From: Candidatus Micrarchaeota archaeon
GTDB lineage: Archaea > Micrarchaeota > Micrarchaeia > Anstonellales > Bilamarchaeaceae
Length of the DNA stretch: 64,000 nucleotides
Direction of reading: 5' to 3'
NCBI GenBank assembly: GCA_964490215.1
Contig: CAZBAM010000002.1
Span: 12,403 to 76,402, forward strand
Shown: one piece after another, positions 1,723-63,052 of the stretch
How positions within the stretch are numbered: the stretch's first letter is position 1
How the letters are laid out: every line of letters starts with the position of its first letter
The notes under the pieces: generated by a model
Seen by the model: the letters and a program-made list of their open reading frames with translations, nothing else
Databases searched by the model: none
Told to the model about the DNA's origin: nothing
Made by a program: the position numbers and the translations under genes

Positions 1723-2703
1723 ATGGTGAATCTCCTTGTATCAGTGATGTCCCTGGCGCTCATCGCCTACCTCGTGGGCGTGGACAAAATCCTGGCCGTG
1801 CTCCTGAAAGCCAGGCCTGAGCTGCTGGCCGCTGCGCTCCTTGCCTATGCTTTTCTGAACGTCGTCATGTCCTACCGTATCAAGGTCGTGCTTGAAGGCA
1901 TCGGAGAACGGATTAGTGTGTGGCAGGCCGTCCCATCCAACCTGGCAGGCATGCTCGCATCGGATTTCACTCCGGCAAGGGCAGGATATTTCTTCACCGC
2001 CTTCTCCATATCCTCGCGCAATGGCATCGCCCTTGAAAAAACCATCCTGTCCATCTTCGGCCCGCAGATGTTTGATTTTCTCATCAAGGTCACCTGCGCA
2101 GGCGTCCTGCTGCTCATGCTGCTCTCCATGGTGGAAGTGGGCGACATGACACTCAACGCCGCGTTCCTCCTGGCCTTCCTGGCCACGATTCTTTTCGTGA
2201 GCGTCCTGGTGTTCCATCCCCCTCTTCTCGCACGGCTCGCCTCCCTGGAATCCATCCCGTTCGTGCCGTTCGCGTTCGCTTTCCTGCGCAGGATGCACAT
2301 CCATTCGGACAAGGTGCTGGCGCTGAAGGAGAAAATAATACTCATCACGTTCTCATCCTGGTTCATCAAGGGCGTGGAATGGTTCTTCCTCTCCCGTGCC
2401 ATAGGCATATCGCTGTCCGGGAATCCCGTCCAGGACCTGCTGTTCATCATGGTATTCCAGGGGGCGATAACGATAATCCAGTTCCTTCCCATCCCGACCC
2501 TCGCCGGTGCCGGTGCGAGCGAAGCCGGGTTCGCAGCCATACTCATCTTTTTCGGAATCCCCTTTGAAGTCGGAGTGACCTTTGGCTTCCTGACGCGTCT
2601 CACCATGATCACGGTGGACATATTCTCGCTGCCCGTGATCCTCGCCTATCTGCGCAGCCACAGCCTGGAGGGGATGCTGAAGGGGATAACAGGCGCGCAT
2701 TGA
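1723..2703 (+). CDS. Flippase-like membrane protein of the lysyl-phosphatidylglycerol-synthase TM-region/UPF0104 family (often partnered with glycosyltransferases)
   Basis: ORF 1702..2703 begins at TTG; first ATG at 1723 (MVNLLVSVMSLALIAYLVG...). Polytopic hydrophobic protein with the family's typical conserved R/K and GxxG features. Confidence 0.5.
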   Translation: MVNLLVSVMSLALIAYLVGVDKILAVLLKARPELLAAALLAYAFLNVVMSYRIKVVLEGIGERISVWQAVPSNLAGMLASDFTPARAGYFFTAFSISSRNGIALEKTILSIFGPQMFDFLIKVTCAGVLLLMLLSMVEVGDMTLNAAFLLAFLATILFVSVLVFHPPLLARLASLESIPFVPFAFAFLRRMHIHSDKVLALKEKIILITFSSWFIKGVEWFFLSRAIGISLSGNPVQDLLFIMVFQGAITIIQFLPIPTLAGAGASEAGFAAILIFFGIPFEVGVTFGFLTRLTMITVDIFSLPVILAYLRSHSLEGMLKGITGAH

Positions 2704-2722
2704 CGCCCCCTGAGGCGAGGCA

Positions 2723-2731
2723 TTTAAAATT
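2723..2731 (+). promoter_or_regulatory. TATA-box-like element upstream of the GT-C-like membrane protein gene
   Basis: tttaaaat about 25 nt upstream of ATG 2755 (leaderless-type spacing). Confidence 0.35.
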
Positions 2732-2754
2732 TGTCCCCAAAAATCAGGAATACA

Positions 2755-4596
2755 ATGACGCTGCCAAGGGAAAGCCTGCTCATTCTGTGCGAAATCGTCC
2801 TGATCTCGCTTACAGCCTCCTATTTCTACCAGAACGAGACCCTGTCGATGGGCGTGCTGTTCGCAGCTTACTTTTTCACGCTCTCGGCTTTGTATGTCGC
2901 GTCAAAGGCCGCATTCAGTCCAGGTGCAGGGAAGAAACCCCTGAACGACTGGGTGCTTTTTCTCATCGCCCCGGTCCTGCTCGTCACCATGCCGTCCCTG
3001 GGCCTGTTCTACGGCCTTGCCCGGTACATCCCCCTCGTATCGTTATTCCTGTTCGTTCAAATCTACGTGGGGATAAAGCTGGTGGAAGCCGCGGCCAGCC
3101 CCACAGGCAGCACCACGGTCAGGAAAACCGGCGTCGTGATTTCGGACCGTGCGCTCTGCATGTTCCTCTTCCTCGTCCTGCTTGCTGCAACCCTGTCGCG
3201 CTTCGTCTTCATTGACGCGGATTTCCTCAATTACGCCAGCATCAGGCAATACCAGACGATCCTCATCGCGAAAAACTTTTACCTGGACAAGATAGACCTC
3301 ATAAGCCCGCTGACCGATTACGCGAAGGAGTCAAACCGGGTTTTCACCCTCAATGGCCTGGAATTCCAGTTCCTCCCCCTAGCCAGCCAGCCCCTGCTGC
3401 ACCTTTTCGGCATGACGAACGCGTCGTTGAGGCTCGCCCCAGTCGTATTCTCGCTGCTTTCCCTCTCGCTCTTCTACGTCCTCCAACGGAAGCGTTTTGA
3501 AGGCCGGAATATGGCGGTCATCGCGACAATCCTGTTCTCCCTGTTCCCCCTGAATCTTTTCATCGGGCGGGCTTACCTGCCGGAAGGGCTGTCGGTCCTG
3601 TCCGTGCTCCTCTTCCTCTACTTTTACGGCAGGTTCAGGGAGTCATGCACGCTCTCGTCGGGCGCCCTCCTTTTCCTTTCCGAAACGCTGCTCTTCCTTT
3701 CCAAGCCGCCCCTGGTCACGCTCGTCGTTCCATTCGTACTCTATGAGCTTTTCATCGTCAGGAAAGCCGGGCTCCGTTTCCTGGCCATCTTCGTGGCTGC
3801 GGCTTTGGTGGACGGGGTGTATTACCTCCTGCAGATAGCCGCCTACAGCTACAACAACGGCAGTTCTGTCATCGGGGATTACATGCACCTCTCCAACCTG
3901 CTCGGCGCCGACTACTACCTTTATCTTTTCTACGCCGTGGCCATCCTCGTATCCTCGGCGTTCGTCCTCATCTTCTTTTTGAAAGGGCTCCGCCTGTCTT
4001 TTGACGAATGGCGGCGTTCGGGCCCGAAAGACGCAGACCCGTACGTGCTGCTCTTCCTCGGTGTCTGCCTGTACGCGCTCGTGTTCAGCGCAGGGACCTG
4101 GGGCAACACATATTACCTGGTCCTGTGGTCCGTGCCGCTTGCGGCCATTTCCGCCCGGGGTATGGAAGGCATCCGCCGTAACGACGTCCTCCTGGCGGTA
4201 GTCGTGCTTTTTATCGCGTTCGTCCTCCCGGCCAACGTCCGCCTGCTCAGCCCTGCAGGCACAGCGCCCGCAATCCTTTCCATTTCAGGGGCAGTGTCCT
4301 CGCTTGCGGCCAACGACAGTTATTTCCTCTACGGGGACTGCTACCCGGACAAGAATAACATGTGGCCCGAAACGGTGTACCTCTCGGGCAGGAAAGCGCT
4401 GTACGTGGGGCTGGAGAACACCTCCCTCGCTTCGGTGGAATGCCTGCTCAGGGAGAACGGCCTGCACGTTTACGAAGGCCCGCTGAGCGACGGTTATGAC
4501 GGGAACCGGAGCCGCATGGTGCTTGTGGCGACCTACCCCTCGGTCAACTGCAACACCACCTACGTCCTTTTCCTCAACCGCTCCACGGGCGGCTGA
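2755..4596 (+). CDS. Large polytopic membrane protein, GT-C-type glycosyltransferase-like (ArnT/PMT-like architecture), with a C-terminal extracytoplasmic domain containing NxS/T sequons
   Basis: ORF 2731..4596 begins at TTG; ATG at 2755 (MTLPRESLLILCEIVLISL...). TATA-like tttaaaat about 25 nt upstream. At least 12 predicted TM segments followed by a soluble C-terminus. Confidence 0.4.
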   Translation: MTLPRESLLILCEIVLISLTASYFYQNETLSMGVLFAAYFFTLSALYVASKAAFSPGAGKKPLNDWVLFLIAPVLLVTMPSLGLFYGLARYIPLVSLFLFVQIYVGIKLVEAAASPTGSTTVRKTGVVISDRALCMFLFLVLLAATLSRFVFIDADFLNYASIRQYQTILIAKNFYLDKIDLISPLTDYAKESNRVFTLNGLEFQFLPLASQPLLHLFGMTNASLRLAPVVFSLLSLSLFYVLQRKRFEGRNMAVIATILFSLFPLNLFIGRAYLPEGLSVLSVLLFLYFYGRFRESCTLSSGALLFLSETLLFLSKPPLVTLVVPFVLYELFIVRKAGLRFLAIFVAAALVDGVYYLLQIAAYSYNNGSSVIGDYMHLSNLLGADYYLYLFYAVAILVSSAFVLIFFLKGLRLSFDEWRRSGPKDADPYVLLFLGVCLYALVFSAGTWGNTYYLVLWSVPLAAISARGMEGIRRNDVLLAVVVLFIAFVLPANVRLLSPAGTAPAILSISGAVSSLAANDSYFLYGDCYPDKNNMWPETVYLSGRKALYVGLENTSLASVECLLRENGLHVYEGPLSDGYDGNRSRMVLVATYPSVNCNTTYVLFLNRSTGG

Positions 4597-4645: not shown

Positions 4646-5362
4646 ATGCCCCAGGTCAGCATTATACTGCCCACCCGGAACGAGGCGGAATGCATCACGA
4701 CCACCCTGACTTCCATAACGAGCCAGCTCGGGGCTGATGGCCTGGATTATGAAGTCATCGTAATGGACGACGAAAGCAAGGACGGCACCCAGGCGCTTGT
4801 AGAATCATTCTCAAAGAAAAACCCGGTCATCCGGCTCGTCCGGAGGAAGCCGCCATACGGCTTCGGGTATTCCATCCGGGAGGGCGTCGCACTGTCCCGC
4901 GGGAAATTGATAGTCGTGATGATGGCAGACCTTTCGGACGACCCTGCATTCGTCAAGGACATGTGGGCTAGGTTCAACGACGGCTACGACGTCGTGGTCG
5001 GCTCGCGGTTCATCAACGGCGCGAAAATATCCAATTACCCCCGCCTGAAATACCTCTCCAACCGGCTGTTCAACCTCTTCATCATGGCGTTCTTCCTCAC
5101 CAGCGTGAGGGACACCTCCAACAACTTCAAGGCGTTCGCAGCCTCCAAAATCCGGAAGATGTCATTCGAGTCCACGGGTTTTGAAATAGGCGCCGAGATG
5201 ATGCTCAGGATGCTCCTGGGCGGCGCCCGTGTCGTTGAGATTCCGGTGAGCTGCTCAGGCCGCACGAAGGGCACAGCGAAATTCAGGCTTTCCAATACCG
5301 CTTTAAAATATTTCCTCCTTTTCCTTAGGATGCTGAAGAGGCGCTTTTTGGTGGAAAAATGA
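4646..5362 (+). CDS. GT2 family glycosyltransferase, dolichyl-phosphate sugar synthase (Dpm1/AglJ-like)
   Basis: MPQVSIILPTRNEAECI...VIVMDDESKDGT...; classic GT-A DxD. Internal ATG at 4646 within ORF 4496..5362. Stop overlaps the next start. Confidence 0.65.
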   Translation: MPQVSIILPTRNEAECITTTLTSITSQLGADGLDYEVIVMDDESKDGTQALVESFSKKNPVIRLVRRKPPYGFGYSIREGVALSRGKLIVVMMADLSDDPAFVKDMWARFNDGYDVVVGSRFINGAKISNYPRLKYLSNRLFNLFIMAFFLTSVRDTSNNFKAFAASKIRKMSFESTGFEIGAEMMLRMLLGGARVVEIPVSCSGRTKGTAKFRLSNTALKYFLLFLRMLKRRFLVEK

Positions 5363-6573
5363 AGGTGTGTGTAGTAGGTATCGGACGCGTAGGCCTTCCG
5401 CTGGCCCTTTACCTCGCTTCAAAAGGCCTGGAATCCCGCGGCTTGGACATAGACGCGAAAAAGGTGGAGCTGCTGAAGAGCGGCAGGATGCCGTTCCCTG
5501 AGGACGGGGCAGCGCCCCTGCTGGCGAAGACGCTTGGCAAGTCCTTCTTCCCGACGACCGAATTCTCTGCGGTTTCCGGTGTTGACACCATCATCATGAC
5601 GCTCGGGACGCCGGTGGACGAGTTCCTCAACCCGGATTTCTCACAGATACATTCTTCCCTTGAAGCCCTCCTGCCCCACCTGCGCGAGGGCCAGCTGCTC
5701 ATCCTGCGGAGCACGGTCTCGCCGGGCTCCACCGAGCACATAAAAAATTACATTGAATCCAAAAGCTCCTACCGTATCGGCAGGAACTTTTACCTGGCCT
5801 TCTGCCCGGAGCGCATCGCGCAGGGCAAGGCCCTCAAGGAACTCGGCGAGCTCCCTGAAATAGTCGGGGGCATAGACGAGGCGAGCACGCGCAAGGCCAC
5901 GGCTTTCTTCAAGACCTTCAAGGACGAGGTGTATCCCACCACGGCAATCAATGCCGAGCTCACCAAGCTGTTCACGAACATGTACCGCTACATAAATTTC
6001 TCAATTGCGAACGAGTTCATGATAATCTCCGAGGAATGGGGGGCCAACATTTACGAGATAACCGACCTTGCCAACCGGAAATACCCGCGCGGCGGGCCGA
6101 GGCCGCCCGGGTTCGCCGCAGGCCCCTGCCTTTTCAAGGACGGCTTCTTCCTGCTGGAGAGCATGCCATTCCCTGACCTGATAACCGCCGCATGGAAGAT
6201 AAACGAGACCATCCCTGGCTACCTGGTCCAGAAGGCGAAGAAGCTGAAGGCCATAAAGGGCGCCAAATGCGCCATACTCGGGATGGCTTTCAAGGCGAAC
6301 AACGACGACGAGCGGGCGTCGCTCTCCCACAAGGTCAGGAAGCTGTTCCAGAAGGAGATGGCTGACGTGCACACGCACGACGTGTTCAGGGACGGCAAGG
6401 ACTTTGATGCCCAGGTCCGGGGCGCCGACTTCCTCGTCATCGCGACCGTGCACGACGAATACAGGAAGCCCTTTGAATATTACCGGAAGCTCATAAAGAA
6501 GGACGCGGTCGTGATAGATATATGGAACGTCTTCGGGAAAAACCGCGTGATTTTCAGGTGTTCTGATGGCTAA
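5359..6573 (+). CDS. Nucleotide-sugar dehydrogenase (UDP-glucose/UDP-ManNAc 6-dehydrogenase family)
   Basis: N-terminal Rossmann MKVCVVGIGRVGLPLALYLA; central and C-terminal UDPG_MGDP_dh-type domains; catalytic Cys region GPCLFKDG. Confidence 0.7.
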   Translation: MKVCVVGIGRVGLPLALYLASKGLESRGLDIDAKKVELLKSGRMPFPEDGAAPLLAKTLGKSFFPTTEFSAVSGVDTIIMTLGTPVDEFLNPDFSQIHSSLEALLPHLREGQLLILRSTVSPGSTEHIKNYIESKSSYRIGRNFYLAFCPERIAQGKALKELGELPEIVGGIDEASTRKATAFFKTFKDEVYPTTAINAELTKLFTNMYRYINFSIANEFMIISEEWGANIYEITDLANRKYPRGGPRPPGFAAGPCLFKDGFFLLESMPFPDLITAAWKINETIPGYLVQKAKKLKAIKGAKCAILGMAFKANNDDERASLSHKVRKLFQKEMADVHTHDVFRDGKDFDAQVRGADFLVIATVHDEYRKPFEYYRKLIKKDAVVIDIWNVFGKNRVIFRCSDG

Positions 6574-7534
6574 TGTCCTTGTTACCGGCGGAGCGGGTTT
6601 CATAGGGAGCGCAGTGGTCAACGAGCTGCTCAAGGCAGGCCATGACGTGACGGTCGTGGACAACCTGAGCAAGGGTGCCCAGACGAACCTGGACATGAAG
6701 AAGGTGACGTTCAAGCGCGCAGACCTGTGCGACGCCTCGCAGGTGTCCTCCCTCCTGGCCGACCAGGAATACTGCTTCCATTTCGCCGCACGCATCGGGG
6801 GCATAGGGTATTTCCACAAATACCCCGCTGAAATCCTCAGGGACAACACCCTGATGTACTCCAACCTGCTTGACGAGGCACTGCGGTCCAAGTCCTTCAG
6901 GAAGATGATATACATCTCGTCGTCCATGGTTTTTGAGAGGACGGACCATTTCCCCTCAAACGAAGAGGACGTGTGGAGCTCGCCGCCGCCGATAAGCCAT
7001 TACGGGTTCTCAAAGCTCGTCGGCGAGTACTATTCGGCAGCCTACCACGACCAATACGGCCTTTCATACTCAGTGTTCCGCCCGTTCAACGCCTACGGGC
7101 CAGGCGAATCACCTGACAACGAGCCGGGCATAGCCCACGTGATACCAGACCTGATAAAGAAGATTTATTTTGACAAGCAGTATCCCGTGGAGATATTCGG
7201 GGACGGGAACCAGGTGCGCTCCTACACCTACGTCACGGACCTGGCAGAAGCGGTCGCATCGCTCTCATTTGACAAGCGGACCGACAACGCGGCCTACAAC
7301 GTCGCCAACCCCCAGCCCGTTACCGTCCTGGAACTGCTCGACAAGATATGGAAGCTCTGCGGCCCGGCAGGCAAGCCGCTCAAGATCGCGCACCTCAAGC
7401 CGTTCAAGGACGACGTGAGGAGGCGGATACCGAGCGCGGACAAGGTCTTCTCGCTCGGCTGGAGGCCGAAGGTAAACCTGGACGAGGGCCTGAAAAGAAC
7501 CTTTGAATGGATAAAAGCCAAACAGTCTTCCTGA
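6566..7534 (+). CDS. NAD-dependent nucleotide-sugar epimerase/dehydratase (extended SDR)
   Basis: VTGGAGFIGS Rossmann motif, YxxxK (YGFSKLVGE). Start overlaps the upstream dehydrogenase stop. Confidence 0.65.
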   Translation: MANVLVTGGAGFIGSAVVNELLKAGHDVTVVDNLSKGAQTNLDMKKVTFKRADLCDASQVSSLLADQEYCFHFAARIGGIGYFHKYPAEILRDNTLMYSNLLDEALRSKSFRKMIYISSSMVFERTDHFPSNEEDVWSSPPPISHYGFSKLVGEYYSAAYHDQYGLSYSVFRPFNAYGPGESPDNEPGIAHVIPDLIKKIYFDKQYPVEIFGDGNQVRSYTYVTDLAEAVASLSFDKRTDNAAYNVANPQPVTVLELLDKIWKLCGPAGKPLKIAHLKPFKDDVRRRIPSADKVFSLGWRPKVNLDEGLKRTFEWIKAKQSS

Positions 7535-12207: not shown

Positions 12208-12927
12208 TTACTCCTTGAGATATTTCTCCGGGTGCTCTTCCATCTCCTTCTGCGCCAGCTCGTAGTCGTCCGGCCTGCCTATGTCCAGCCACTCGCATCT
12301 GTCCCTGAAGCAGCAGACTGTCTCGCCCTTTTTCCTGAGCCTGAGCATCAGGTCAGGCATGCCCAGCGCCTCGCCTTTCTTTATGCTGGCCAGCGCCTTC
12401 CTGTTGAGCGCGTTCACGCCCATGCTGACCAGGAACGGCATCGTGGGCTTCTCAACATAATCCTTCAGCTTCATATCCCCGTCCGCGGTTATGACGCCGT
12501 AGTCTATCTTCTGCACGCGCTCAAACACGCCTATGGTGGCCGTCGCTTTCCTGTCCTTGTGGAATTTCATCAGCTTCCCGTAATCAAGCGTGGTGAGGAT
12601 GTCGCCGTTTATAACCAGGAAGTCCTCGTCAAGGCGTATGCCCGCGCCTTCCATGATGCCGAGCGCGCCGGCGGTGTTGAGCGGTGTCTCCTCCCGCACG
12701 TATCTTATCTTCACGCCGAGATTTTCACCGTCGCCGAAATATGCCTCTATCAGCCCTGCGAGGTGGCCGGTGGATATGACGATGTCCACGAACCCGGCCT
12801 TCTTCAGCTGGTGGATGACGATTTCAAGTATGGGCTTATCGCCCAATGGAACGAGCGGCTTCGGGAACGTGGCGGTGTACGGCCTCAGCCTCGTCCCCTT
12901 CCCACCCGCGAGTATTATCGCCTGCAT
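12208..12927 (-). CDS. Sugar-1-phosphate nucleotidyltransferase (mannose-1-P guanylyltransferase / glucose-1-P cytidylyltransferase-like)
   Basis: MQAIILAGGKGTRLRPYT...KPLVPLGDKPIL, the classic NTP-transferase signature. Confidence 0.65.
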   Translation of the reverse strand: MQAIILAGGKGTRLRPYTATFPKPLVPLGDKPILEIVIHQLKKAGFVDIVISTGHLAGLIEAYFGDGENLGVKIRYVREETPLNTAGALGIMEGAGIRLDEDFLVINGDILTTLDYGKLMKFHKDRKATATIGVFERVQKIDYGVITADGDMKLKDYVEKPTMPFLVSMGVNALNRKALASIKKGEALGMPDLMLRLRKKGETVCCFRDRCEWLDIGRPDDYELAQKEMEEHPEKYLKE

Positions 12928-22889: not shown

Positions 22890-23879
22890 TTATTTTCTGA
22901 AGCGTATTGTTTCACGCATATCAGATACCACGCCATGTATATTCAGCACCCGGTCAAAAACTGTGCTCCAATTGGAATCATACGGCATTTGCTCATAGAA
23001 TTGCATGCGACCGTTTTCTAGCCGGCTGGTGCTGTTGAAGTTGTAAAAATATATATTGCCGCGCGCTTGTATTATGCGGAAATATTTCTCTATCTCATTC
23101 CATGGCATTTCAATAAGAGAAACCGAGTTTATGAAAAGCCGTATGTCCCTGGCTTGCAGCACTTCCTCAGCGAGACTGGAGGGGATGAACACAATGCAGT
23201 CCTTTGCCCGGAAGTTCTTCAGGTCGTCTTTCTTTTCAACGAAAAAGAGCCTTCTGCCAGTGCTCTGCCTGGCCAGGTAAGTCATGCTCAATGCAAGCGT
23301 TTCAAACAGGTCTATTATGTAGTAGTTGTCCAGTTTATCCTGGTTGAGGCAGAATAGTTCCGCGAAGCCTCCGTACCCCCCCCCAATCTCACAAGCCGAG
23401 AACCTGCTTTCCTGGAGGACTGGCACGTTGGCCTTTATGACCGCCAGCTGTGCCGCATAACGTCTTATGTTCGCATTGAATATTTTCCCATTGAAGGAGT
23501 AAAACAAGTCCTGAAAGTTCTTCCGGTCAGGCGGCAGGGTTATGCCTGCCTCGGTAAGGACGTTAAACTCTATTCTTGGTCTGACGGACTGAAAAGGCCA
23601 GATAAGCGCATTTCTCATCATATGGAGATATAGCCGTCTGGTTATGCCCTGTTTGCTCCCGAAGCATCTCGACAGACCGCCAATCATGTATTGCCAGGTA
23701 CATCTCACCGGCGGGTCCAGCACGCCATCTGAGAATCGCGTAAGGTAGAATTTATCCAGCTTAGCCAGTTCGGCTTTTGTTCCGGCCATATCCTTCCATG
23801 TGCCAGACAATTCAGAGGCGTATCCATCCCATTTTTCCAATACGAACTTTGCAACGTTGTCGCGCGTTATTTCGAACAT
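22890..23879 (-). CDS. Putative sugar O-methyltransferase-like protein (class I MTase-like, EIGGGYGGFAE)
   Basis: Gly-rich SAM-binding-like motif; gene is visibly AT-richer than its neighbours. Confidence 0.4.
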   Translation of the reverse strand: MFEITRDNVAKFVLEKWDGYASELSGTWKDMAGTKAELAKLDKFYLTRFSDGVLDPPVRCTWQYMIGGLSRCFGSKQGITRRLYLHMMRNALIWPFQSVRPRIEFNVLTEAGITLPPDRKNFQDLFYSFNGKIFNANIRRYAAQLAVIKANVPVLQESRFSACEIGGGYGGFAELFCLNQDKLDNYYIIDLFETLALSMTYLARQSTGRRLFFVEKKDDLKNFRAKDCIVFIPSSLAEEVLQARDIRLFINSVSLIEMPWNEIEKYFRIIQARGNIYFYNFNSTSRLENGRMQFYEQMPYDSNWSTVFDRVLNIHGVVSDMRETIRFRK

Positions 23880-38658: not shown

Positions 38659-39375
38659 ATGTACGGTGTTTCTCCCCAGGCATATGACAGAGCGATTACG
38701 GTATTCAGCCCTGACGGCAGGCTTTTCCAGGTGGAATACGCCAAGGAGGCGGTCAAGCGCGGTGCGACAGCCGTCGGCATAACCGCCAAGGACGGCGTGG
38801 CCCTGGTTGCGTTCAAGTCCATCCACACGAAGCTCGTCGTCCCGGAATCGCTCAAGAAGGTGTTCCAGGTTGATTCTCACATCTGCGTCACGGCCAGCGG
38901 CCTCATCGCGGACGCGCGCAGGCTGGTGGACGTGGCGAGGGTGGACGCCCAGCGCCACCGCATCACCTACAACGAGATGCCGACCGTGGAGTCCATAGCC
39001 CGCAGCGTGTGCGACCTGATGCAGGTCTATACGCAATACGGCGGAATCCGGCCGTTCGGCGTGTCGCTGCTCATCGCCGGCGTGGACGCGCAGGGCCCGA
39101 AGCTGTTTGAGGCAGAGCCCAGCGGCGCCATGACAGCCTACAAGGCCGATTCAATCGGCGCGAACAAGAAGGAAGTGGACGACATCCTGGAGAAGAGCTA
39201 CAAGGACACGCTCACCGTGGAAGAGGCGATAAAAATCGCGCTTGAGGCGATCCGCACCACGCAGGAGGAGAAGCTCCAGGCTGAGAACGTGGAGATATCC
39301 TACATCCCGATAAAGCCCAAGAAGGCGCTGACGCTTTCGGACAAGGAAGTCGCGAAATACCTGAAGGGCGCGTGA
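38659..39375 (+). CDS. psmA: Proteasome subunit alpha
   Basis: MYGVSPQAYDRAITVFSPDGRLFQVEYAKEAVKRG, canonical alpha-subunit N-terminus. ORF 38650 starts at GTG; ATG at 38659 with gaggtg SD-like motif and tttataaata TATA upstream. Confidence 0.8.
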   Translation: MYGVSPQAYDRAITVFSPDGRLFQVEYAKEAVKRGATAVGITAKDGVALVAFKSIHTKLVVPESLKKVFQVDSHICVTASGLIADARRLVDVARVDAQRHRITYNEMPTVESIARSVCDLMQVYTQYGGIRPFGVSLLIAGVDAQGPKLFEAEPSGAMTAYKADSIGANKKEVDDILEKSYKDTLTVEEAIKIALEAIRTTQEEKLQAENVEISYIPIKPKKALTLSDKEVAKYLKGA

Positions 39376-39377
39376 AT
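39345..39377 (+). repeat. 33-bp direct repeat copy 1 (3' end of psmA including stop codon)
   Basis: ggaagtcgcgaaatacctgaagggcgcgtgaat; second copy at 40733..40765 with 1 mismatch. Confidence 0.7.
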
Positions 39378-39443
39378 CCTTTCGTTTCCTGTTTTGGCGT
39401 TGCCAGGCTTGGTTTTGTGTCTATATGCCCCTACAAGGGCATA

Positions 39444-39455
39444 TTTTTAATAATT
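39444..39455 (+). promoter_or_regulatory. TATA-box-like element for the inserted ATPase gene, preceded by a perfect 8-bp-stem hairpin
   Basis: atatgcccctacaagggcatat hairpin then tttttaataatt; ATG at 39474. Confidence 0.4.
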
Positions 39456-39473
39456 ATGCTCCTATAAGTACAC

Positions 39474-40703
39474 ATGGCAATCCCGACCAAGAACGAAATA
39501 ATGGATTTCTCGCCGATAAACAAAGGTGGAATCGAGAACGTCCCGGAATACCGGCGAACTGCATTCAGGGAAATAGGCACGGCGCTGGATACCGGATTCA
39601 TAGTTGCGATAACCGGCCTGCGCAGGGTCGGAAAGACCACCCTGATAAAGCAGACGCTGGGAAAGAATTCATTCTATTTCTCCTTTGACGAAAAAAGATA
39701 CGCCAATCCTGACGCGCTCAGGCAGGTGATTGAAACATTCGTGAAAGAGGGCGAAAGGCCCCTCATCGCCCTGGACGAGGTGTTCAGGGTCGGGGACTGG
39801 TCCGGTTTGATAAAGCGGTACCACGACCAGAAACTGGCGCGTTTCATAGTGAGCGGATCCTCGGCGCTGGGAGTAAAGAAGGGGGTTGAAAGCCTGGCCG
39901 GAAGGATGGTGGAGAGGTACATCCAGCCTCTCAGGTTTGAAGAATACCTGGAACTTGGGGGCGAAAAGCCCGAAAGGCCTGGGCTTGCGGACCTGTTCAG
40001 GAAAGCAAAGCGGCATGAAGCCGGGTTGGAGTCGTTCCTCAGGCGCGGCTCGTTCCCTGAACTGGCCGGAAGGAAGGAAATTGATGCAACGGAGTACATA
40101 CGGACCAGTACGGTGGAAAAAATCGTATTTGACGACATACCCTCTATTTTTAAGATAGAGAATCCTTCCAAGCTGTACGACCTGTTCCGGCTGTGTGCTA
40201 CGAATTCCTCACGGCTTTTCACAGAGGTTAATCTCGCCGAGGCGCTCCAGATGGGCAGGCACGCGGTTTCGGATTACCTCCTTTATCTCCGAAAGGCGTA
40301 CCTCCTGGACGTCGTCTATCCCCAGGGGTCTCTCCAGAAGGCGCTCAAGAAGCAGAAGAAGGTCTTCGCAAAGACGGCGAGCATCTATAACGCGATTGCC
40401 GAGAACCCGAATGCCGGCCAGGCTGCCGAAACTGCGGTTTTTGACAAGCTTTCCGGTTCCGGGCCGTCATTCTACAGGGACGCGCAGAAAAGGGAGGTTG
40501 ATTTCATCTCCTCCGTCCCCATAGAAGTGAAATTCCAGTCCATCGTCCTGCGCAGTGATATAGAGAACCTCATTTATTATGCGAAAAGGCGGAAGGCAGG
40601 GAAAGCCATAGTCGTGACCGAAAACCTTTTTGATGAGAAAGATTACGACGGAGTGACCGTTACCTTCATCCCCCTGGACGTTTTCCTGCTGTTGAAGTTG
40701 TAA
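39474..40703 (+). CDS. AAA-domain ATPase with C-terminal DUF4143 (archaeal ATPase family)
   Basis: Walker A ITGLRRVGKTTL; Walker B LIALDEV; C-terminal DUF4143-like region. Confidence 0.6.
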   Translation: MAIPTKNEIMDFSPINKGGIENVPEYRRTAFREIGTALDTGFIVAITGLRRVGKTTLIKQTLGKNSFYFSFDEKRYANPDALRQVIETFVKEGERPLIALDEVFRVGDWSGLIKRYHDQKLARFIVSGSSALGVKKGVESLAGRMVERYIQPLRFEEYLELGGEKPERPGLADLFRKAKRHEAGLESFLRRGSFPELAGRKEIDATEYIRTSTVEKIVFDDIPSIFKIENPSKLYDLFRLCATNSSRLFTEVNLAEALQMGRHAVSDYLLYLRKAYLLDVVYPQGSLQKALKKQKKVFAKTASIYNAIAENPNAGQAAETAVFDKLSGSGPSFYRDAQKREVDFISSVPIEVKFQSIVLRSDIENLIYYAKRRKAGKAIVVTENLFDEKDYDGVTVTFIPLDVFLLLKL

Positions 40704-40732
40704 TCCTGCGGGCAGCCAGACGCTCCCGGGCG

Positions 40733-40765
40733 GGAAGTCGCGAAATACCTGAAGGGCTCGTGAAT
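40733..40765 (+). repeat. 33-bp direct repeat copy 2 (displaced psmA 3'-end remnant, encodes ...EVAKYLKGS*) followed by a T-rich terminator-like tract
   Basis: ggaagtcgcgaaatacctgaagggctcgtgaat then tttcgctttcactcttttctgacttttttt. Confidence 0.7.
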
Positions 40766-40811
40766 TTTCGCTTTCACTCTTTTCTGACTTTTTTTGTAGA
40801 TTGACGAAAGC

Positions 40812-41492
40812 CTACCTTACGACAGTGCCGTTGTGCTTCTTCCCGGCTATGGCGTTCTTTATGGAGTCCATCCTGTTCCCGGCCACGAAATGCGTCTCTA
40901 TCCCTGAACGGGCGATGAGCTTGCACGCCAGCATGTCAAAAACGAAGTGCGTGCCTGCCGAGCGGCTGTCGTTCTCCGCTGCGAGCTTTATCAGCTCGTT
41001 GTAGCTCATCTTCGCGAACTTTTTCGCCTTCGGGTTCTTGTTCGGGTTGCTGTCGTAGATGCCTTCCACGTTGCTGATGTTGACGAGCCGTTTCGCCCCG
41101 GTGGCCTCGGCGAGCAGGACCGCGTCGGTGTCGGTCGTGATGCCCGGGATGGTCCCGCCCATGACGACGGCCTTGTTCCTCCTGCCCTTGGCTTCCTCAA
41201 AATCCGTTATCACGTGCCTGTAAACGTCCACGCCGGCCCCGGCGAGCGCTGTTATGAGCAGCTGCGCGTTCTGCCTCGTGGAGGTTATGCCTATGGCGTC
41301 CGCCTCGTATTCGCTGGCCCCCAGCTCCCGGGCCGCGTTGGCATACACCCTGGCGATGGAGCCGCCGCCGGTCAGTATGCCGAACTCGTTCGGGCTCTCC
41401 TTTATCATCACAGCCACTGCCTTCAGGAATTTCAGCGATGGCTTGCCCTCAGGGTTTATGGTGCTTCCGCCTATTGAAAGTACGACGCGCAT
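40812..41492 (-). CDS. pyrH: Uridylate (UMP) kinase, archaeal type
   Basis: MRVVLSIGGS...; amino-acid kinase fold motifs (GGGS, VMGGT). Confidence 0.7.
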   Translation of the reverse strand: MRVVLSIGGSTINPEGKPSLKFLKAVAVMIKESPNEFGILTGGGSIARVYANAARELGASEYEADAIGITSTRQNAQLLITALAGAGVDVYRHVITDFEEAKGRRNKAVVMGGTIPGITTDTDAVLLAEATGAKRLVNISNVEGIYDSNPNKNPKAKKFAKMSYNELIKLAAENDSRSAGTHFVFDMLACKLIARSGIETHFVAGNRMDSIKNAIAGKKHNGTVVR

Positions 41493-45048: not shown

Positions 45049-45174
45049 CCTCCCACCTCGGAATATACTGGACGGAAAGGGATTTAACCCGTGGCACGCA
45101 GCTGGCCCCACCAGTGCCCTTTTTATTGGTTTTGTGTCAAAGTCCGTGTATTCTATGTAAGAGGAGGGATAGTC

Positions 45175-46035
45175 ATGATACCTACAGTCAAGCCGCTTAG
45201 GGAACGTTATGGAGAAGTGGACAGGCTCACCGCCGGCTACAGGAAGTCCATAAAATCTCATGACCTGCTCGTGGAGCCTGTTTTCAAGGCATGCAGGTTC
45301 AATTTCTCCAGGAGTAGGACGACTATGCTGGATGCCATGTCAGGGCCGGGCGGCCTGGGCCTGGAACTGCTGGCTATGTTTGACCGGCAGCGCCCGCGAG
45401 GCAATACCAGCGAGCTTGCGATTATATTCAATGACGTGCGCAAGGAATCAATCCAGCAGATTCTCGGTGCTTTCTCGGCTTCCTTCGGCACTTTCAATTT
45501 TGATGTTTGCGAGGTTAACGCCCCCACATGTACGTTGCCTTTCAATGTGGCAGCAATGCGCTACGGGCTCACAGAGTTGACAAAAAATGACCAGGAAGCC
45601 GCACTCAAGGCCATCTACAACTGCCTTCTTCCAGGCGGAAGGCTTGTAGTCGCTGACATGACCGCTTATAATTTCTGGCAGCAGGATGGCATCACAAGGG
45701 TGCATTCCGCAAGGCAGGGGCTTGCGGGCAGGGACGTGGAGAAAGAGGGCATATGTCATATTCCGACTATTAACGAATGGACATCGCTCGCCTTCGGTGC
45801 AGGCTTTGTGAACGTTGCCATCGCATTCACCGGTACCAATGACGTGTCTGTTTCCCAGTGGGCAGGCGAGTTCGATGACGGTCCAGAGCAGAAAATCCGC
45901 ACTATGAACCGCATAATCAAAGAAACGGCTGAGGGGAACGAGTCCTTCAAGAACGGGTGCGCGGTGGAGTTCGGCCACGCGGGTGCGAGTCTGAAACTTC
46001 CAGTTATTGTCCTCACAGGGGACAAACCTGCATGA
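45175..46035 (+). CDS. Class I SAM-dependent methyltransferase (paralog 1 of a tandem pair)
   Basis: LDAMSGPGGLGLELL; LPGGRLVVADM; gaggaggg SD-like motif upstream of ATG 45175. Confidence 0.45.
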   Translation: MIPTVKPLRERYGEVDRLTAGYRKSIKSHDLLVEPVFKACRFNFSRSRTTMLDAMSGPGGLGLELLAMFDRQRPRGNTSELAIIFNDVRKESIQQILGAFSASFGTFNFDVCEVNAPTCTLPFNVAAMRYGLTELTKNDQEAALKAIYNCLLPGGRLVVADMTAYNFWQQDGITRVHSARQGLAGRDVEKEGICHIPTINEWTSLAFGAGFVNVAIAFTGTNDVSVSQWAGEFDDGPEQKIRTMNRIIKETAEGNESFKNGCAVEFGHAGASLKLPVIVLTGDKPA

Positions 46036-46057
46036 TGTGCAGGAGAGGCACAATACC

Positions 46058-46801
46058 ATGATGAAAACAAGGTTACGTCGTGAATCCTCCTGCCCTAGCC
46101 CCTTCAAGTCCCCCCGGGTCTTAGACTTCAACAAATCCACCTATGGCTTTGCCCCGCTTCTGGAGCATGTTTTCAAGGCGTGCGATTTCCAGAAGCTCGC
46201 AATCCGGCCGGCCGTGGATTTCCTGGATGCCATGTCAGGCTCAGGAACGCTCGGGCTTGCCATCAGGGAAAAGGTCAAGGCGGCCATGGCGGATAAGTTC
46301 CATCATTTCGCATTCTATTTCAACGACGTCGCTGAGGCGCCGCTGGCAAAGCTGAGAGAGACCGCGCTAATCGCGCACCGTGACATCTGCGACATAGGCA
46401 CGCGCTTCCCTGACACTTTCCACGTAGTCGCCATGCAGAATGGCATCGTTGACCTGCCAAAAGAGCGCCAGCTCCAGGCATTTCGCTCTATTTACGACTC
46501 CATGAAGCCTGGCGGAAGGCTCGTGGTGGCTGACCTGGCTTCATTGGACGAGCAGCAACAGAGTTATTTATCCTCCTTACATTTCGTTTCCGGCACGTCT
46601 GCGGCAGCCGCCCCCAGGACCCATGAGGCATACATCCCTCTCATGAAAGAATGGCACGACCTTCTCAAGTCTGCAGGCTTTAGGGAGGCTGAGTTGCCGA
46701 TTAGTGAGTTCACAATCTACTTCAGTGGTGGCACGAACAACACAGCCGTGAGATATCCGGCGATAGTCCTAGCAGCTGACAAGCCATATCCAACGGAATG
46801 A
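46058..46801 (+). CDS. Class I SAM-dependent methyltransferase (paralog 2 of the tandem pair)
   Basis: LDAMSGSGTLGLAI; MKPGGRLVVADL; aggagagg SD-like motif upstream. Confidence 0.45.
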   Translation: MMKTRLRRESSCPSPFKSPRVLDFNKSTYGFAPLLEHVFKACDFQKLAIRPAVDFLDAMSGSGTLGLAIREKVKAAMADKFHHFAFYFNDVAEAPLAKLRETALIAHRDICDIGTRFPDTFHVVAMQNGIVDLPKERQLQAFRSIYDSMKPGGRLVVADLASLDEQQQSYLSSLHFVSGTSAAAAPRTHEAYIPLMKEWHDLLKSAGFREAELPISEFTIYFSGGTNNTAVRYPAIVLAADKPYPTE

Positions 46802-46848
46802 ACAGCACAATCGTGAGATATCTACTCGCAGGGAACAAGCCCGCGTAA

Positions 46849-52004: not shown

Positions 52005-52571
52005 TTGTCTAAAAAACCGGATTTTGTAATCACCAACATGGTGGCATCAGCCTCTCTCGGCCTTGAGTTGGACCTCTACGCGCTGGCCAGCAAGATAAAG
52101 GAGATAGAATACGAGCCGGAGCAGTTCCCCGGCGCCATACTCAAGTTCAAGGAGCCCAAGGCATCGCTCCTGCTCTTCAAGAACGGCAAGGTGGTCTGCG
52201 TCGGCTGCAAGCAGCGCATTCTCATAGAGAGGACGATAGACAAGACCATAAAGATGCTCACGCCATACGCCAAGAGGATAAACAGCACCAAGAAGCCCAA
52301 GATAGACATAACCAACATCGTGGCATCGGCCAATCTGGGGCTTGAGCTTGACCTCTACAAGATAGCCTCCAAGCTCAAGGACGTGGAATACGAGCCGGAG
52401 CAGTTCCCCGGCGCCATACTCAAGTTCAAGGAGCCAAAGGCCTCCCTGCTGCTTTTCAAGAACGGCAAGGTCATCTGCGCCGGTGCCAAGAACGAGAAGG
52501 AGATAAGGATAGTGCTGGACAAGGCCAAGAGGCTGCTCAGGCCGTATGCCGAGAAGGCAAGGCAGGGGTAG
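52005..52571 (+). CDS. tbp: TATA-box-binding protein
   Basis: Two tandem TBP repeats (ITNMVASASLGLELDLY... and ITNIVASANLGLELDLY...); apparent TTG start at 52005 preceded by an SD-like motif (first ATG at 52038). Confidence 0.8.
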   Translation: MSKKPDFVITNMVASASLGLELDLYALASKIKEIEYEPEQFPGAILKFKEPKASLLLFKNGKVVCVGCKQRILIERTIDKTIKMLTPYAKRINSTKKPKIDITNIVASANLGLELDLYKIASKLKDVEYEPEQFPGAILKFKEPKASLLLFKNGKVICAGAKNEKEIRIVLDKAKRLLRPYAEKARQG

Positions 52572-59593: not shown

Positions 59594-62500
59594 TCAGAAG
59601 TCGGTCATCTTCATTTGGCCTTCCTTCGGCTTGGGTTTTGCGGTCTTTTTCAGCTCGTCGGCGACGACGAACGAATCGTCATGCCTCCTCGCCCTGCCGG
59701 CCATCGTGTCTGCAGGAACGAAGGCCTGCGCCCTGCCCCCTGCAATCTCGCCTGCCCGCTTCATGCCGTGCAGTATGCTCTTCATCCTCTTCTCGCGGTT
59801 CTGGGACGCGTAATGGTAGTACTCGTCCCTCGTCCCCTTCGTCATCAGCACGATTACCTCGCCTTCCTTGAGGCGGGCGGCGCGCCCTCTCCGCTGGATG
59901 GTGCGTATCTCGCTGGGAACAGGCTCGTAGAATATGACCGCATCAACCGCAGGTATGTCCAGGCCTTCCTCGCCGATGCTTGACGCGACCATGGCGTCAA
60001 ACTTCCCTGCGCGGAACTCCGCGATGGTCTCCTCCTGCATCTTCCTGGTCACGCCCTCCTTCTTGCCCACGAAACGTTTCGCGCTTATGCCGTTCGCCCT
60101 CAGCACGTCCTCAATGCGCGCTATCTGCGAGCGGTACTGGACGAAGACTATCATCTTCTTCCCTGCGCCGGAGAGCCTCTTCACGGTCTCCACCAGCACC
60201 TTCATCTTGGGGTGGTCCTCGTCCTTCAGGCACAGCTCCTTCACCTTCGCCATCCCGGGCTCGTTCAGGAGCAGTTTCGCTGACTTGCCCTCCTTCGCCT
60301 CCAGCTTCGCTATGTATTCCCGCAGCGGGTAGATGCCCTGGGTCTCAAGCAGTTCGGTCATGTGGAGCAGGTGGAGCAGGGCGTAATACTGCACGAGCGC
60401 AGGGAATTTGATGTTGTGGGGGATGTTGCGTATGCGCTCGCCGAGCGCGAGGAAATTGCCCTTGTGCCTCAGCGGGGGCGGGAATCCCATGCCCGCGAGC
60501 CGCTGCGCGTGTTTTCCGGTGAGCGCGTCCAGTTCGGACTTGAGAGCCCGGAAATGGCCGGACAGGTCCACAGGCACCCAGGTTATCGTGCTTTTCTGCA
60601 CGTACGGCGAGACGTCCGCGTCGTCCTGGCCGCGTATCTCCACATTGGTTATTTTCAGGTTATTCAATACGTCATTTATTCTCTCTCTCCTGCCTCCAGG
60701 TGAGGCGGTGAGGCCCAAGATTAATGTGGTTTGCGGAAGTTTTTCTGCTATGTAAGTGTAAGCATAATCCTTAACCGCCCGATGAGCTTCATCAAATACG
60801 CATAACGAAAAATTCTCCAGGCTGATGCGATTGTTCTGAAGATCATTTTTTATGGTCTGCGGAGTGGAAAAAATCACATCGGCCTGATCATACAGTTCGT
60901 GTCTTTTCTCCGGAGCAACCTCCCCGGTGCATAGAACGAGATTAATGTCGTTTCTGATGAACTGCCTGAATGTTCCCAGGTGTTGTGAAGAAAGCGGTTT
61001 GGTAGGTGCGAGAATGAGGATTTTCTTATCGGGATGGCGGTCCAGACTATGAGCTACAATCAGAGCTGCGATTGAGGTATTATGCGAAATGAGAGCGCCA
61101 TAATCCCCAGCGATGAAATTTCCATTTTCCGTGCATATGTCATAAACCCACTGCGGTTTTTTTACATGAGAAATACTTTTTATTTTATCAAAAGCTATGT
61201 TTGCCTGAAGCAGCTGTTTAAGCATGTCTATTTTTCCGAATGAGCTGGCAGCGCATTTCCATTTTCTGTCCATATAGTCGATAAGCGATAAAAGTTTCTG
61301 CGGGTTTACTGTCGCGGGATTCACCCCCGCCCTTCTCAATTCAAAATTCGTGATCCTCATGGCTGTTATGATTCTCCCTATTCTACCCTGTAGTTCGGTT
61401 CGTTTATCAAGGCGCTTTATCCTACCAGCTGCATAAAGTAAGCGAATATAAGGTGACCCATCTTTGATTTTTGGGAAATATCTGCCCCCGCTCCATGCTT
61501 TGTACTGCTTACCGATAATTTCCGTATCTCTCAAAAAGCTTCTCGTGCCCCTCCCTGTCTTGAGTTGCCCCTTTATATCCAAAATCTCCCTGAAAACGTT
61601 TAGCGCATCCACATCCCGACTAATAGATTGTAATTCCGCCCTTCTTTCTTCCAAAACAGATACGATATACGCCAGCATGTTCCGCGAGGGATTCCGTATG
61701 CCCCTTTCATAGATTCCGAAATCAGACAATTGATTAAAGTCCTTTCCCTTCGAGGTCACAAGGCCCATGCTTTTTCTTATTTCCCCCAGTATTTTGCCGA
61801 CTGGAAGCACATCCACGTTCGTGTTGGCTATTTTTGCCGACTTTGTTATCCTAGCCAGCCGTTCCTTTCTTTCCGGTTGTTTAAAACCTATGTAATCTTC
61901 AAACAATTTGAGGTTTTCTTTGCCCTCAATGTTGATCCGGTAATACGTCCTTTCTTTTGGGTTTGGAGAATTTGTCGCTTTGGATTTTTTTGGTCTGACT
62001 CTGCATACGATGCCAAATCTTAACAAAAGATACGGCAATGCCTGCGCCATTCTTTTGCTTGCAGTCATAAATTCGATGAGCCCATCTTTCCGTACCGAAC
62101 CATCGCCGTCATATAAGCCACAAATAAAAGCGGAGACCACCCCGGCCGGTGCCCTCATTATCGCTTTTGGTACTATCTTGTCTCTTGAATGACAATTAGT
62201 TATGCCGAATGCGGATCTTAGAAAGTAAATAAGGGCAGTTGAACTGACATGTAAACCCCCATCTATTTTTGTGGTTTCCAGGCCAAAAAGGGTTCTTGAA
62301 AGAATTTCGAAATCTTTTAGGATGACCTCGTCTTCATTGTAAAAGTTTATGCCACCATCGAGACGGGCTTCCGCTGTTATCAGACCCAAAAATCGGGCCA
62401 ATTCAGGGGTCAACTCGTCAACTGGCTTCACTACGTCCTTCGAACTTCTGCCTCCTACGCAATAAACCCCCAGAACCTTTCCGTCATACCCGCTTACAAA

Positions 62501-63052
62501 TCTCTTTCCCGGTACGCTCTCAAATACTTTGCAAAAGTCTATTCTGGTTTCATGTGCCGCAGGGCTGATTTTGTTTGGGATGGCCACCCAGTCCTTCAAT
62601 TTCAATTCAGCAGCGCTGACCCATGAAAAATCTTTATCAAAACCAAGAATGAGGTGTTCCGGGGTTACCCGAACCGATATGCCCGCCTCTGTTTCTACTT
62701 CGATGATCTCATCGGCTTTGAATTTACAAAATGCTATGACCTCCGTTGCTTTAATACCATGCTCTGTGAATGAGACGACCCGCAAATCCCGTGATTGATT
62801 GAGCGTGATGGACCCATTATGCATCTGAAAGCCCGGTGAACTTGCCAGTGCTTTTTCAACAAGTTCGCCCATGTACTCCGTCTGGCCGTTTTCCAGAAGT
62901 ATTAAGTCTTCAAAACCATGACATTTTCCCAAACCCGTTGGGAGGACGACTAGTGTATTTTTATCCATTGCAGATCTTGCTATCGCTTCCTGATAATCTC
63001 GTCTCTCGATTACGTTCGGATTAATTAGTGAATGGCTGACGTATTCCTTCAT
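59594..63052 (-). CDS. hef: Hef/FANCM-type SF2 helicase (helicase-only, no ERCC4 nuclease domain) interrupted by a 615-aa intein in the P-loop
   Basis: RRDYQ; LPTGLGK|C...intein...HN|TSIAAL; DEAH (VFDEAHRA); motif VI QRRGRAAR. Extein about 537 aa. Confidence 0.7.
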   Translation of the reverse strand: MKEYVSHSLINPNVIERRDYQEAIARSAMDKNTLVVLPTGLGKCHGFEDLILLENGQTEYMGELVEKALASSPGFQMHNGSITLNQSRDLRVVSFTEHGIKATEVIAFCKFKADEIIEVETEAGISVRVTPEHLILGFDKDFSWVSAAELKLKDWVAIPNKISPAAHETRIDFCKVFESVPGKRFVSGYDGKVLGVYCVGGRSSKDVVKPVDELTPELARFLGLITAEARLDGGINFYNEDEVILKDFEILSRTLFGLETTKIDGGLHVSSTALIYFLRSAFGITNCHSRDKIVPKAIMRAPAGVVSAFICGLYDGDGSVRKDGLIEFMTASKRMAQALPYLLLRFGIVCRVRPKKSKATNSPNPKERTYYRINIEGKENLKLFEDYIGFKQPERKERLARITKSAKIANTNVDVLPVGKILGEIRKSMGLVTSKGKDFNQLSDFGIYERGIRNPSRNMLAYIVSVLEERRAELQSISRDVDALNVFREILDIKGQLKTGRGTRSFLRDTEIIGKQYKAWSGGRYFPKIKDGSPYIRLLYAAGRIKRLDKRTELQGRIGRIITAMRITNFELRRAGVNPATVNPQKLLSLIDYMDRKWKCAASSFGKIDMLKQLLQANIAFDKIKSISHVKKPQWVYDICTENGNFIAGDYGALISHNTSIAALIVAHSLDRHPDKKILILAPTKPLSSQHLGTFRQFIRNDINLVLCTGEVAPEKRHELYDQADVIFSTPQTIKNDLQNNRISLENFSLCVFDEAHRAVKDYAYTYIAEKLPQTTLILGLTASPGGRRERINDVLNNLKITNVEIRGQDDADVSPYVQKSTITWVPVDLSGHFRALKSELDALTGKHAQRLAGMGFPPPLRHKGNFLALGERIRNIPHNIKFPALVQYYALLHLLHMTELLETQGIYPLREYIAKLEAKEGKSAKLLLNEPGMAKVKELCLKDEDHPKMKVLVETVKRLSGAGKKMIVFVQYRSQIARIEDVLRANGISAKRFVGKKEGVTRKMQEETIAEFRAGKFDAMVASSIGEEGLDIPAVDAVIFYEPVPSEIRTIQRRGRAARLKEGEVIVLMTKGTRDEYYHYASQNREKRMKSILHGMKRAGEIAGGRAQAFVPADTMAGRARRHDDSFVVADELKKTAKPKPKEGQMKMTDF
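61079..62923 (-). mobile_element. Intein (615 aa) with LAGLIDADG homing-endonuclease domain, inserted between K43 and T659 of the Hef Walker A motif
   Basis: N-terminal splice residue Cys (GLGK/CHGFEDLILLENG); C-terminal block VYDICTENGNFIAGDYGALISHN/T; LAGLIDADG-like FLGLITAEARLDGG and ICGLYDGDGSV. Confidence 0.7.

Follow-up and report, generated by a model that had tools for sequence, protein, structure and literature searches.

Integrative elements of archaea and bacteria, together with their integrase-less (cis-mobilisable) derivatives, can target the 3' ends of genes. Casposons, the Cas1-dependent self-synthesising transposons of archaea, span 8–20 kb and have terminal inverted repeats and genes for Cas1 and a family B polymerase; they can use the 3' end of the protein-coding gene aEF-2 as a target, of which about 14–15 bp are then duplicated. 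Another described route is insertion with long target duplication, in which a direct repeat of more than 30 bp flanks DNA that contains no mobility gene, and a genome with the empty site holds one copy of the repeat (Furuta et al. 2010, Nucleic Acids Res 38:2428, PMC2853133). This type of insertion is credited to Nobusato et al. 2000, as cited in Furuta, Abe and Kobayashi 2010 (PMC2853133). That study required inserts of less than 20 kb with both restriction (R) and modification (M) genes; its repeats are 45–420 bp long, some overlap the 3' ends of genes (the Haemophilus cases), and no archaeal case was found there. Here we describe a locus in Candidatus Micrarchaeota archaeon where a single ATPase-nuclease gene with its own promoter lies between duplicated copies of the 3' end of psmA, the proteasome alpha subunit gene, next to the convergent gene pyrH. 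The locus is part of a stretch of 64,000 nucleotides (nt), positions 12,403–76,402 of contig CAZBAM010000002.1 (assembly GCA_964490215.1), which we refer to as the window and whose numbering is used throughout.

The inserted gene belongs to PDC-S01, a type of protein in which an ATPase is fused to a PD-(D/E)XK domain (PMC12988326). PDC-S01 is a candidate defence gene (PMC12988326; bioRxiv 10.1101/2024.01.29.577857), among the most common in archaea and bacteria, and is abundant in archaea, with 9986 archaeal systems making up 25% of the detected occurrences (PMC12988326). Its DUF4143/COG1373 part has been placed in the PD-(D/E)XK superfamily (PMC3424549). In the literature that we compared there was nothing on the movement of PDC-S01 genes, on target duplications flanking them or on a conserved palindromic promoter.

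At this locus a foreign gene of defence type has been inserted at the 3' end of psmA, with a repeat copy on either side. The 33-nt sequence GGAAGTCGCGAAATACCTGAAGGGCGCGTGAAT occurs at 39345–39377 and again at 40733–40765, where 32 of the 33 positions are identical and the sole mismatch is G/T at repeat position 26. The initial annotation, made from the sequence without database searches, had reported this pair with its one substitution at the end of psmA, and both stand; the search for the 33-bp core that it proposed gave only these two matches across the 64-kb window when up to three mismatches were allowed, with none in 100 dinucleotide-preserving shuffles. When the two copies are aligned against each other with gaps, the local alignment covers 66 nt (39330–39395 against 40719–40783) and scores 74, compared with a maximum of 34 in 3000 dinucleotide shuffles. 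Weaker similarity over some 15 nt after each copy had also been proposed: the gapped alignment does extend to 39395 and 40783, but the T-rich arm downstream of the repeat, taken alone, gives P = 0.07. For the arm upstream of the repeat (GACGCT..CGG, 9/11 with a 1-nt shift), taken unanchored, P = 0.3. No unusual structure was found in the repeat, and an Rfam scan of 39000–41200 returned zero RNA families. Two contigs from separate sequencing runs (ERR3804376 and ERR4334730) are 100% identical to the window across both junctions, so that three assemblies agree, including that of the window; the arrangement is therefore real and an assembly artefact is excluded.

A scan for PsmA with one genome per species gave 80 Micrarchaeota loci, and an exact-protein look-up of PsmA from two start codons gave no match. 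Convergent pyrH follows psmA in 67 of these loci, including two contigs of the window's lineage (L001 and L002), and the gap between the two genes is 2–183 nt in 43 of the 67. The nearest relatives, L003 and L004, encode a PsmA that is 96% identical and have flanking DNA that is 83–88% identical. Both contain one psmA end with a single copy of the repeat, a T-rich spacer of about 30–45 nt and then pyrH, with no insert, and 27–31 nt in these genomes correspond to 1.42–1.44 kb of the window. The insertion is the derived state and is peculiar to the lineage of the window. The empty site that the initial annotation had suggested looking for is present in these two relatives, and its proposal of a lineage-specific insertion at the psmA 3' end, where the repeat duplicates the gene end and psmA retains its native C-terminus, is borne out. 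The PsmA C-terminus, KEVAKYLKGA, agrees with that of L003–L005. Neither of the arrangements named as evidence against an insertion was seen: the occupied state is not ancestral with an empty site lacking, and the repeat is not part of any larger tandem duplication that includes the ATPase gene. A psmA-end repeat is absent from every other psmA locus among the 80 genomes. On the far side of the insert, 40784–40803 matches the sequence beside the psmA stop codon in L005 (P = 0.008), which argues that the right flank is native.

The same L005 stretch (6726–6745) shares TTTTTTGTAGATTG with the window spacer, an 18/20 gapped match over CTGACTTTTTTTGTAGATTG. In L005 it encodes the C-terminus (AIYKKVR-stop) of an unrelated minus-strand open reading frame (ORF) of 222 amino acids (aa) that was found only in that genome, and the final 9 nt of this ORF are the final 9 nt of the window pyrH. 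The similarity between the L005 and window spacers could be a relic or a recruited spacer.

The DNA between the repeat copies amounts to 1355 nt and holds one credible ORF, the ATPase gene. Its G+C content (GC) is 0.528, compared with 0.591±0.035 for 51 long window ORFs, and its GC at third codon positions (GC3) is 0.673, compared with 0.77±0.08 for the same ORFs and 0.82–0.83 for both flanking genes. The insert is foreign, lower-GC DNA with one candidate anti-virus gene and its own promoter, and the earlier description of the intervening DNA as AT-richer, with its own hairpin and TATA-like stretch and with only an AAA+DUF4143 ATPase, agrees with this; Pfam finds AAA_14 and DUF4143 in the single real ORF. 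The insert contains no transposase, Cas1 or integrase gene, the lack of an integrase having been noted before, and there is no inverted similarity between its ends (P = 0.96) that would indicate terminal inverted repeats.

The 409-aa product matches AAA_14 (PF13173, E 3e-27, residues 43–159) and DUF4143 (PF13635, E 8e-17) in Pfam, and the PADLOC PDC-S01 model PDLC04787 (E 3e-49) over profile positions 12–399 of 412, with six more PDC-S01 models also matching. Across 43 aligned homologues the Walker A residues G48, G53 and K54, the Walker B residues D101 and E102, and the PD-(D/E)XK residues E319, D343, E351 and K353 are invariant. The protein thus resembles PADLOC PDC-S01 (AAA_14 + DUF4143; COG1373) in its full-length model match, its Pfam domains and its Walker A/B and PD-(D/E)XK residues, and by all of these sequence-level measures it is assigned to PDC-S01/COG1373 as a candidate defence protein. 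In an AlphaFold2 (AF2) model with a predicted local distance difference test score (pLDDT) of 93, D343 and E351-x-K353 lie on strands 2 and 3 of a C-terminal alpha-beta-beta-beta-alpha-beta unit. This unit has the canonical PD-(D/E)XK layout in the model, and a nuclease is predicted. Fold matches of the whole chain are to the archaeal AAA+ proteins 2fna and 2qen, STAND ATPases and clamp-loader-type ATPases. A sequence search of the PDB with the ATPase gave nothing significant, and NCBIfam and PHROGs gave zero matches. In plasmid and phage databases only distant homologues were found, at no more than 28% identity over substantial coverage (one short fragment reached 34%); they are bacterial wherever the organism is named and are uninformative on an archaeal vehicle.

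Homologues of the ATPase with 60–76% identity occur at about 14 distinct housekeeping sites in other Micrarchaeota, where their neighbours include a KaiC-like gene, Trm56, ribosomal protein L15e, PcrB, carbamoyl-phosphate synthase, an AbiE pair and RNase H, among others. Every Micrarchaeota homologue (L083–L104) is preceded by two to four palindromes of about 22 nt with a consensus of about ATGTGCTCTTATAAGAGCACAT, spaced by TTTTTAAGTTT, and the last box abuts the ATG. Between the boxes all homologues have TTTTTAA(G/A)TTT, the counterpart of the TATA-like stretch of the window, which we infer to be the promoter of a leaderless transcript. The core motif TGCYCYTWTAAGRGCA, at up to two mismatches, has 36 matches within 260 nt upstream of ATPase starts and five elsewhere in 0.98 Mb. 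Similarity between cassettes begins at the boxes and ends at the stop codon, and the end sequences are not common to them. Since the same boxed promoter is found at all sites, promoter and gene behave as a unit. This conserved promoter is previously undescribed. The arrangement of the boxes suggests that they are operator-like and possibly autoregulatory, and they offer a testable handle on the regulation of the gene. Judged by eye, the target repeats bear no resemblance to the palindromic boxes.

Several loci show variations on this unit. L085 (6104–6153) and L102 (4473–4522) each contain a solo promoter copy of about 50 nt (46/50) that lies some 250 nt past the ATPase gene and is followed by no ORF; it may be the scar of a lost cassette. 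These two loci had been candidates for flanked cassettes and were rejected, the repeat there being a duplicated promoter fragment and not a target duplication. Their ATPase gene adjoins an AbiEi/AbiEii pair, a PIN gene and a Fic gene in a small defence island. In L096 the homologue adjoins a second, divergently oriented AAA_14 + DUF4143 paralogue of 488 aa (2189–3655, minus strand), and three copies of a different palindrome (CATGCC..ATAAAGGCA) lie downstream of the homologue at 5220–5330, ahead of the gene for a giant 4572-aa protein.

A second flanked cassette was found in L088, a 408-kb Micrarchaeia contig (Ga0265297_10000057), with repeats at 4911–4932 and 6233–6254 that are exact over 16 nt and match at 20 of 22 nt overall, a score that a single one of 3000 dinucleotide shuffles attained. 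An upstream radical-SAM gene ends directly at the left copy, whose opposite strand codes for ...IYFPQV-stop, the ending that homologues of the convergent AsnC-family gene of this contig also have. The body of the AsnC-family gene runs without a break into the right copy, and the gene now extends by six codons into the end of the cassette. The left end of the cassette cuts through half a box. Judging the target state from the C-termini of AsnC-family homologues, the nearest of which is 56% identical, we read this as a target duplication at a convergent 3' junction with the same geometry as in the window. The L088 and window repeats are of unrelated sequence and different length. No flanking repeats were found around the other 14 cassette contexts.

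The reading that we favour, with somewhat better than even confidence, is that a horizontally acquired single-gene cassette was inserted between psmA and pyrH with a long, variable target duplication. The cassette, consisting of two boxes around a TATA-like stretch and the AAA_14/PD-(D/E)XK gene, would have landed in the very short psmA–pyrH spacer and duplicated the target by at least 33 bp, possibly by about 50–66 bp with damaged inner ends. The left copy would leave psmA complete, including its stop codon, and the right copy would stay joined to the native spacer and pyrH. Such an outcome could arise if a DNA fragment were captured at a staggered double-strand break and the long overhangs were filled in, or by an equivalent end-joining route, and an integrase or transposase encoded by the element would not be needed, as has been proposed for bacterial restriction-modification genes.

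The locus resembles restriction-modification and Type IV restriction insertions in being a nuclease defence unit of at most a few kb, of atypical GC and without a transposase or integrase. Like the class described in PMC2853133 it has a direct repeat of more than 30 bp that is present once in an empty-site genome (here in relatives that are 83–88% identical and not of the same species) and that overlaps the 3' end of a gene, and the lengths and sequences of the repeats differ between events. That class also calls for a genome-unique repeat, and this one is unique within the 64-kb window. The differences from that class are that the cassette is a single ATPase-nuclease gene without a methyltransferase, that it has a conserved boxed promoter, that the host is a DPANN archaeon, and that the repeats are 33 nt (window) and 16–22 nt (L088) as against 45–420 bp; in both settings the mechanism is a proposed one. 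Casposons share with the insert an archaeal location at the 3' end of a protein-coding gene and an unusually long target duplication, but the window insert has neither terminal inverted repeats nor genes for Cas1 or a family B polymerase. The locus is a clean archaeal example of a known route of defence-gene movement, and no new kind of element is involved. It is the first archaeal (DPANN) example, and the first for PDC-S01, of insertion with long target duplication that we could find in the literature compared.

Several points weigh against this reading. Flanking repeats occur at only 2 of about 16 cassette contexts, so that the pattern rests on two events, and the L088 repeat is only modestly significant after multiple testing and, at 16–22 nt, falls under the 30-bp threshold of PMC2853133. 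The comparators for the empty site, L003 and L004, are only 83–88% identical in their flanks, and no strain-level empty site was seen. The 33-nt core is near-perfect and the arms on both inner sides are much weaker, a profile that is equally expected if a host site recombined with a diverged copy of the psmA end carried by the element, whether of attachment-site (att) or Campbell type. The uneven identity can be read either as junction-proximal damage during break repair or as arms derived from such an element-borne copy. The anti-virus role of PDC-S01 is likewise a presumed one, the family being a candidate only (PMC12988326; bioRxiv 10.1101/2024.01.29.577857).

The alternative that survives best, though we regard it as unlikely, is integrase-mediated site-specific integration, in which an attP site carried a copy of the psmA 3' end, the 33-nt repeats are the cores of attL and attR, and the integrase was lost or supplied in trans. 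As in elements that integrate at gene 3' ends, direct repeats here bound compositionally foreign DNA at the end of a conserved gene that stays intact with its reading frame preserved, and the near-perfect core is accompanied by partly similar element-proximal arms (39330–39344 against 40719–40732, and 39378–39395 against 40766–40783). The one-gene cargo is unlike that of such elements, and there is no recombinase gene in the insert or among the atypical-GC window genes that were scanned. The target is not a tRNA gene, and tRNA genes are absent from the whole window. Neither relatives of the ATPase nor a 25-nt core of the repeat were found in IMG/VR viral contigs, and the repeat is seen at no other psmA locus of the 80 genomes. 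Trimming to exactly promoter plus gene, both here and in L088, would need two independent and equally precise decays, and the two repeats and the cassette ends have nothing in common that could be a shared attP or att core. The lack of a recombinase, the trimming to the same unit at two sites, the absence of conserved ends and the unrelated repeats together argue against a recombinase with a fixed att site and two decays. The earlier description of the locus as 'classic' site-specific integration by a decayed or non-autonomous integrase element is for these reasons not upheld: the minimal unit occurs at many sites, the L088 repeat is unrelated and the ends are unconserved.

Campbell-type integration, which we consider improbable, would bring in a circle containing the cassette and about 50–70 nt of a related psmA 3' end, for example one excised from a donor with the cassette already beside psmA; a single RadA-dependent crossover within the 33-nt stretch would then duplicate the homologous segment. 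This would require no dedicated recombinase, predicts the same core with diverged arms as the att model, and leaves direct repeats that would also permit re-excision as a circle. A donor with the cassette beside psmA is needed, however, and none of the 80 Micrarchaeota psmA loci outside the window's lineage is of this kind; the closest relatives of the ATPase (76% identical) adjoin unrelated genes. The upstream arm has a frameshift against the psmA sequence and resembles it only at a statistically weak level, and a stretch of 33 nt is very short for homologous recombination.

PDC-S01 cassettes might be autonomous selfish genes, with the ATPase-nuclease binding its own boxes through the helical/winged-helix region and making staggered breaks into which the unit inserts with long target duplications of variable length, a proposal that we consider improbable. 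If true, it would give archaea an equivalent, without a methyltransferase, of the 'virus-like life cycle' proposed for restriction-modification systems and would explain why single PDC-S01 genes are scattered among housekeeping genes in streamlined DPANN genomes. Finally, it is very improbable that the psmA end was duplicated first and the cassette landed between the copies by chance, or that the assembly is at fault, because, even though chance insertion between pre-existing repeats is one class of repeat-flanked defence genes (PMC2853133), all 65 other genomes with a psmA–pyrH pair have just one psmA end, the repeats and the insert share their boundaries, two contigs from other runs are 100% identical over both junctions and the same geometry is found at the second cassette, L088.

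On the favoured reading of insertion with long target duplication, the locus bears on how single-gene defence systems such as PDC-S01 spread, and shows travel as a minimal promoter-plus-gene unit. The unit entered a gap of 30–50 nt between two essential genes and damaged neither, because the target was duplicated. Together with L088 it would take the long-target-duplication class, documented before only for restriction-modification genes of bacteria, into the archaea and to a nuclease that comes without a methyltransferase. A wider survey could search for the signature formed by the boxed promoter, the cassette ends and the duplicated flanking 3' ends.

Table 1. Features of the insertion and of the two genes that flank it (positions in the window).
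Feature	Position	Strand	Description
psmA (proteasome alpha subunit)	38659–39375	+	Intact; Pfam Proteasome (E 6e-55) and Proteasome_A_N
Left repeat copy	39345–39377	+	Last 28 nt of the psmA coding sequence (~10 codons), stop codon and 2 nt beyond
T-rich spacer	39378–39422	+	Left end of the inserted DNA; small GC hairpin at 39393–39407
Palindromic box 1	39423–39444	+	ATATGCCCCTACAAGGGCATAT; hairpin; operator-like element of the cassette promoter
A/T-rich TATA-like stretch	39445–39455	+	TTTTAATAATT; ~25 nt before the ATG
Palindromic box 2	39454–39475	+	TTATGCTCCTATAAGTACACAT; abuts and overlaps the start codon
ATPase gene	39474–40703	+	Sole gene of the insert; 409 aa; AAA_14, helical/winged-helix region, DUF4143 PD-(D/E)XK (predicted)
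Insert tail	40704–40732	+	29 nt; final ~14 nt (40719–40732) resemble the psmA sequence that immediately precedes the repeat, but lack 1 nt
Right repeat copy	40733–40765	+	32/33; non-coding relic of the psmA 3' end; T for the conserved G at position 26
Native psmA–pyrH spacer	40766–40811	+	Oligo-T runs; 40784–40803 (CTGACTTTTTTTGTAGATTG) matches beside the psmA stop codon in L005
pyrH-like UMP kinase	40812–41492	-	Amino acid kinase family; conserved convergent partner of psmA

The features of the locus are collected in Table 1. The T-rich spacer to the left of the boxes probably serves both as the terminator of psmA and as the left edge of the insert. Homology of this spacer to the native spacers of L003 and L004 was apparent by eye and was not supported by shuffling (P = 0.6–0.7).

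The psmA–pyrH junction is enlarged by unrelated genes in 22 other genomes (L005, L009, L011–L013, L015, L018, L019, L021, L022, L031, L032, L036, L037, L041, L043, L044, L048, L052, L058, L071 and L075), with inserts of 0.45–4.5 kb. These encode a Mut7-C RNase, HD phosphohydrolases, a Fic protein, an AsnC regulator and a methyltransferase-like protein; several have no Pfam match or were unscanned. The convergent junction is a hotspot of gene-content variation across Micrarchaeota. No psmA-end repeats were found around any of these 22 junctions, and the hotspot is therefore not a shared att site. Repeat-flanked insertions were also sought as a general feature, and about 1 Mb of Micrarchaeota DNA gave only paralogues, internal protein repeats and an intergenic repeat.

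Two of the compared loci contain other repeats near these genes. In L070 a 36-nt repeat flanked by G/C runs, CCCCCTCCTCTCTTTAGGGTAATCATACCTCCCCCC, is present at 3281–3316 and 6763–6798 with similar flanks, one copy being in the psmA–pyrH spacer and the other 3.5 kb upstream, where it follows a different gene; this could be a small intergenic repeat element. An imperfect direct repeat of about 58 nt in L066 (5913–5970 and 8408–8465) brackets three ORFs; one copy covers the 5' end of pyrH and its upstream region, and the other, 2.5 kb away, lies where another ORF on the minus strand begins.

Elsewhere in the window, 45096–46848 is a second lineage-specific indel relative to L004, which has 44 nt there; it holds two lower-GC methyltransferase-like genes (45175–46035 and 46058–46801) and no flanking direct repeat. 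The ORF of lowest GC in the window (0.476) encodes 329 aa at 22890–23879 on the minus strand, has no Pfam match and no flanking repeat that we found, and may be another foreign gene. At 59594–63052, on the minus strand, a DEAD/ResIII helicase of 1152 aa, whose GC is low (0.49), harbours an intein that has a LAGLIDADG homing-endonuclease domain. A direct repeat of 183 nt at 52029–52490, 83% identical and with its copies 279 nt apart, is the ordinary internal two-fold repeat of the TATA-binding protein gene (52038–52571).

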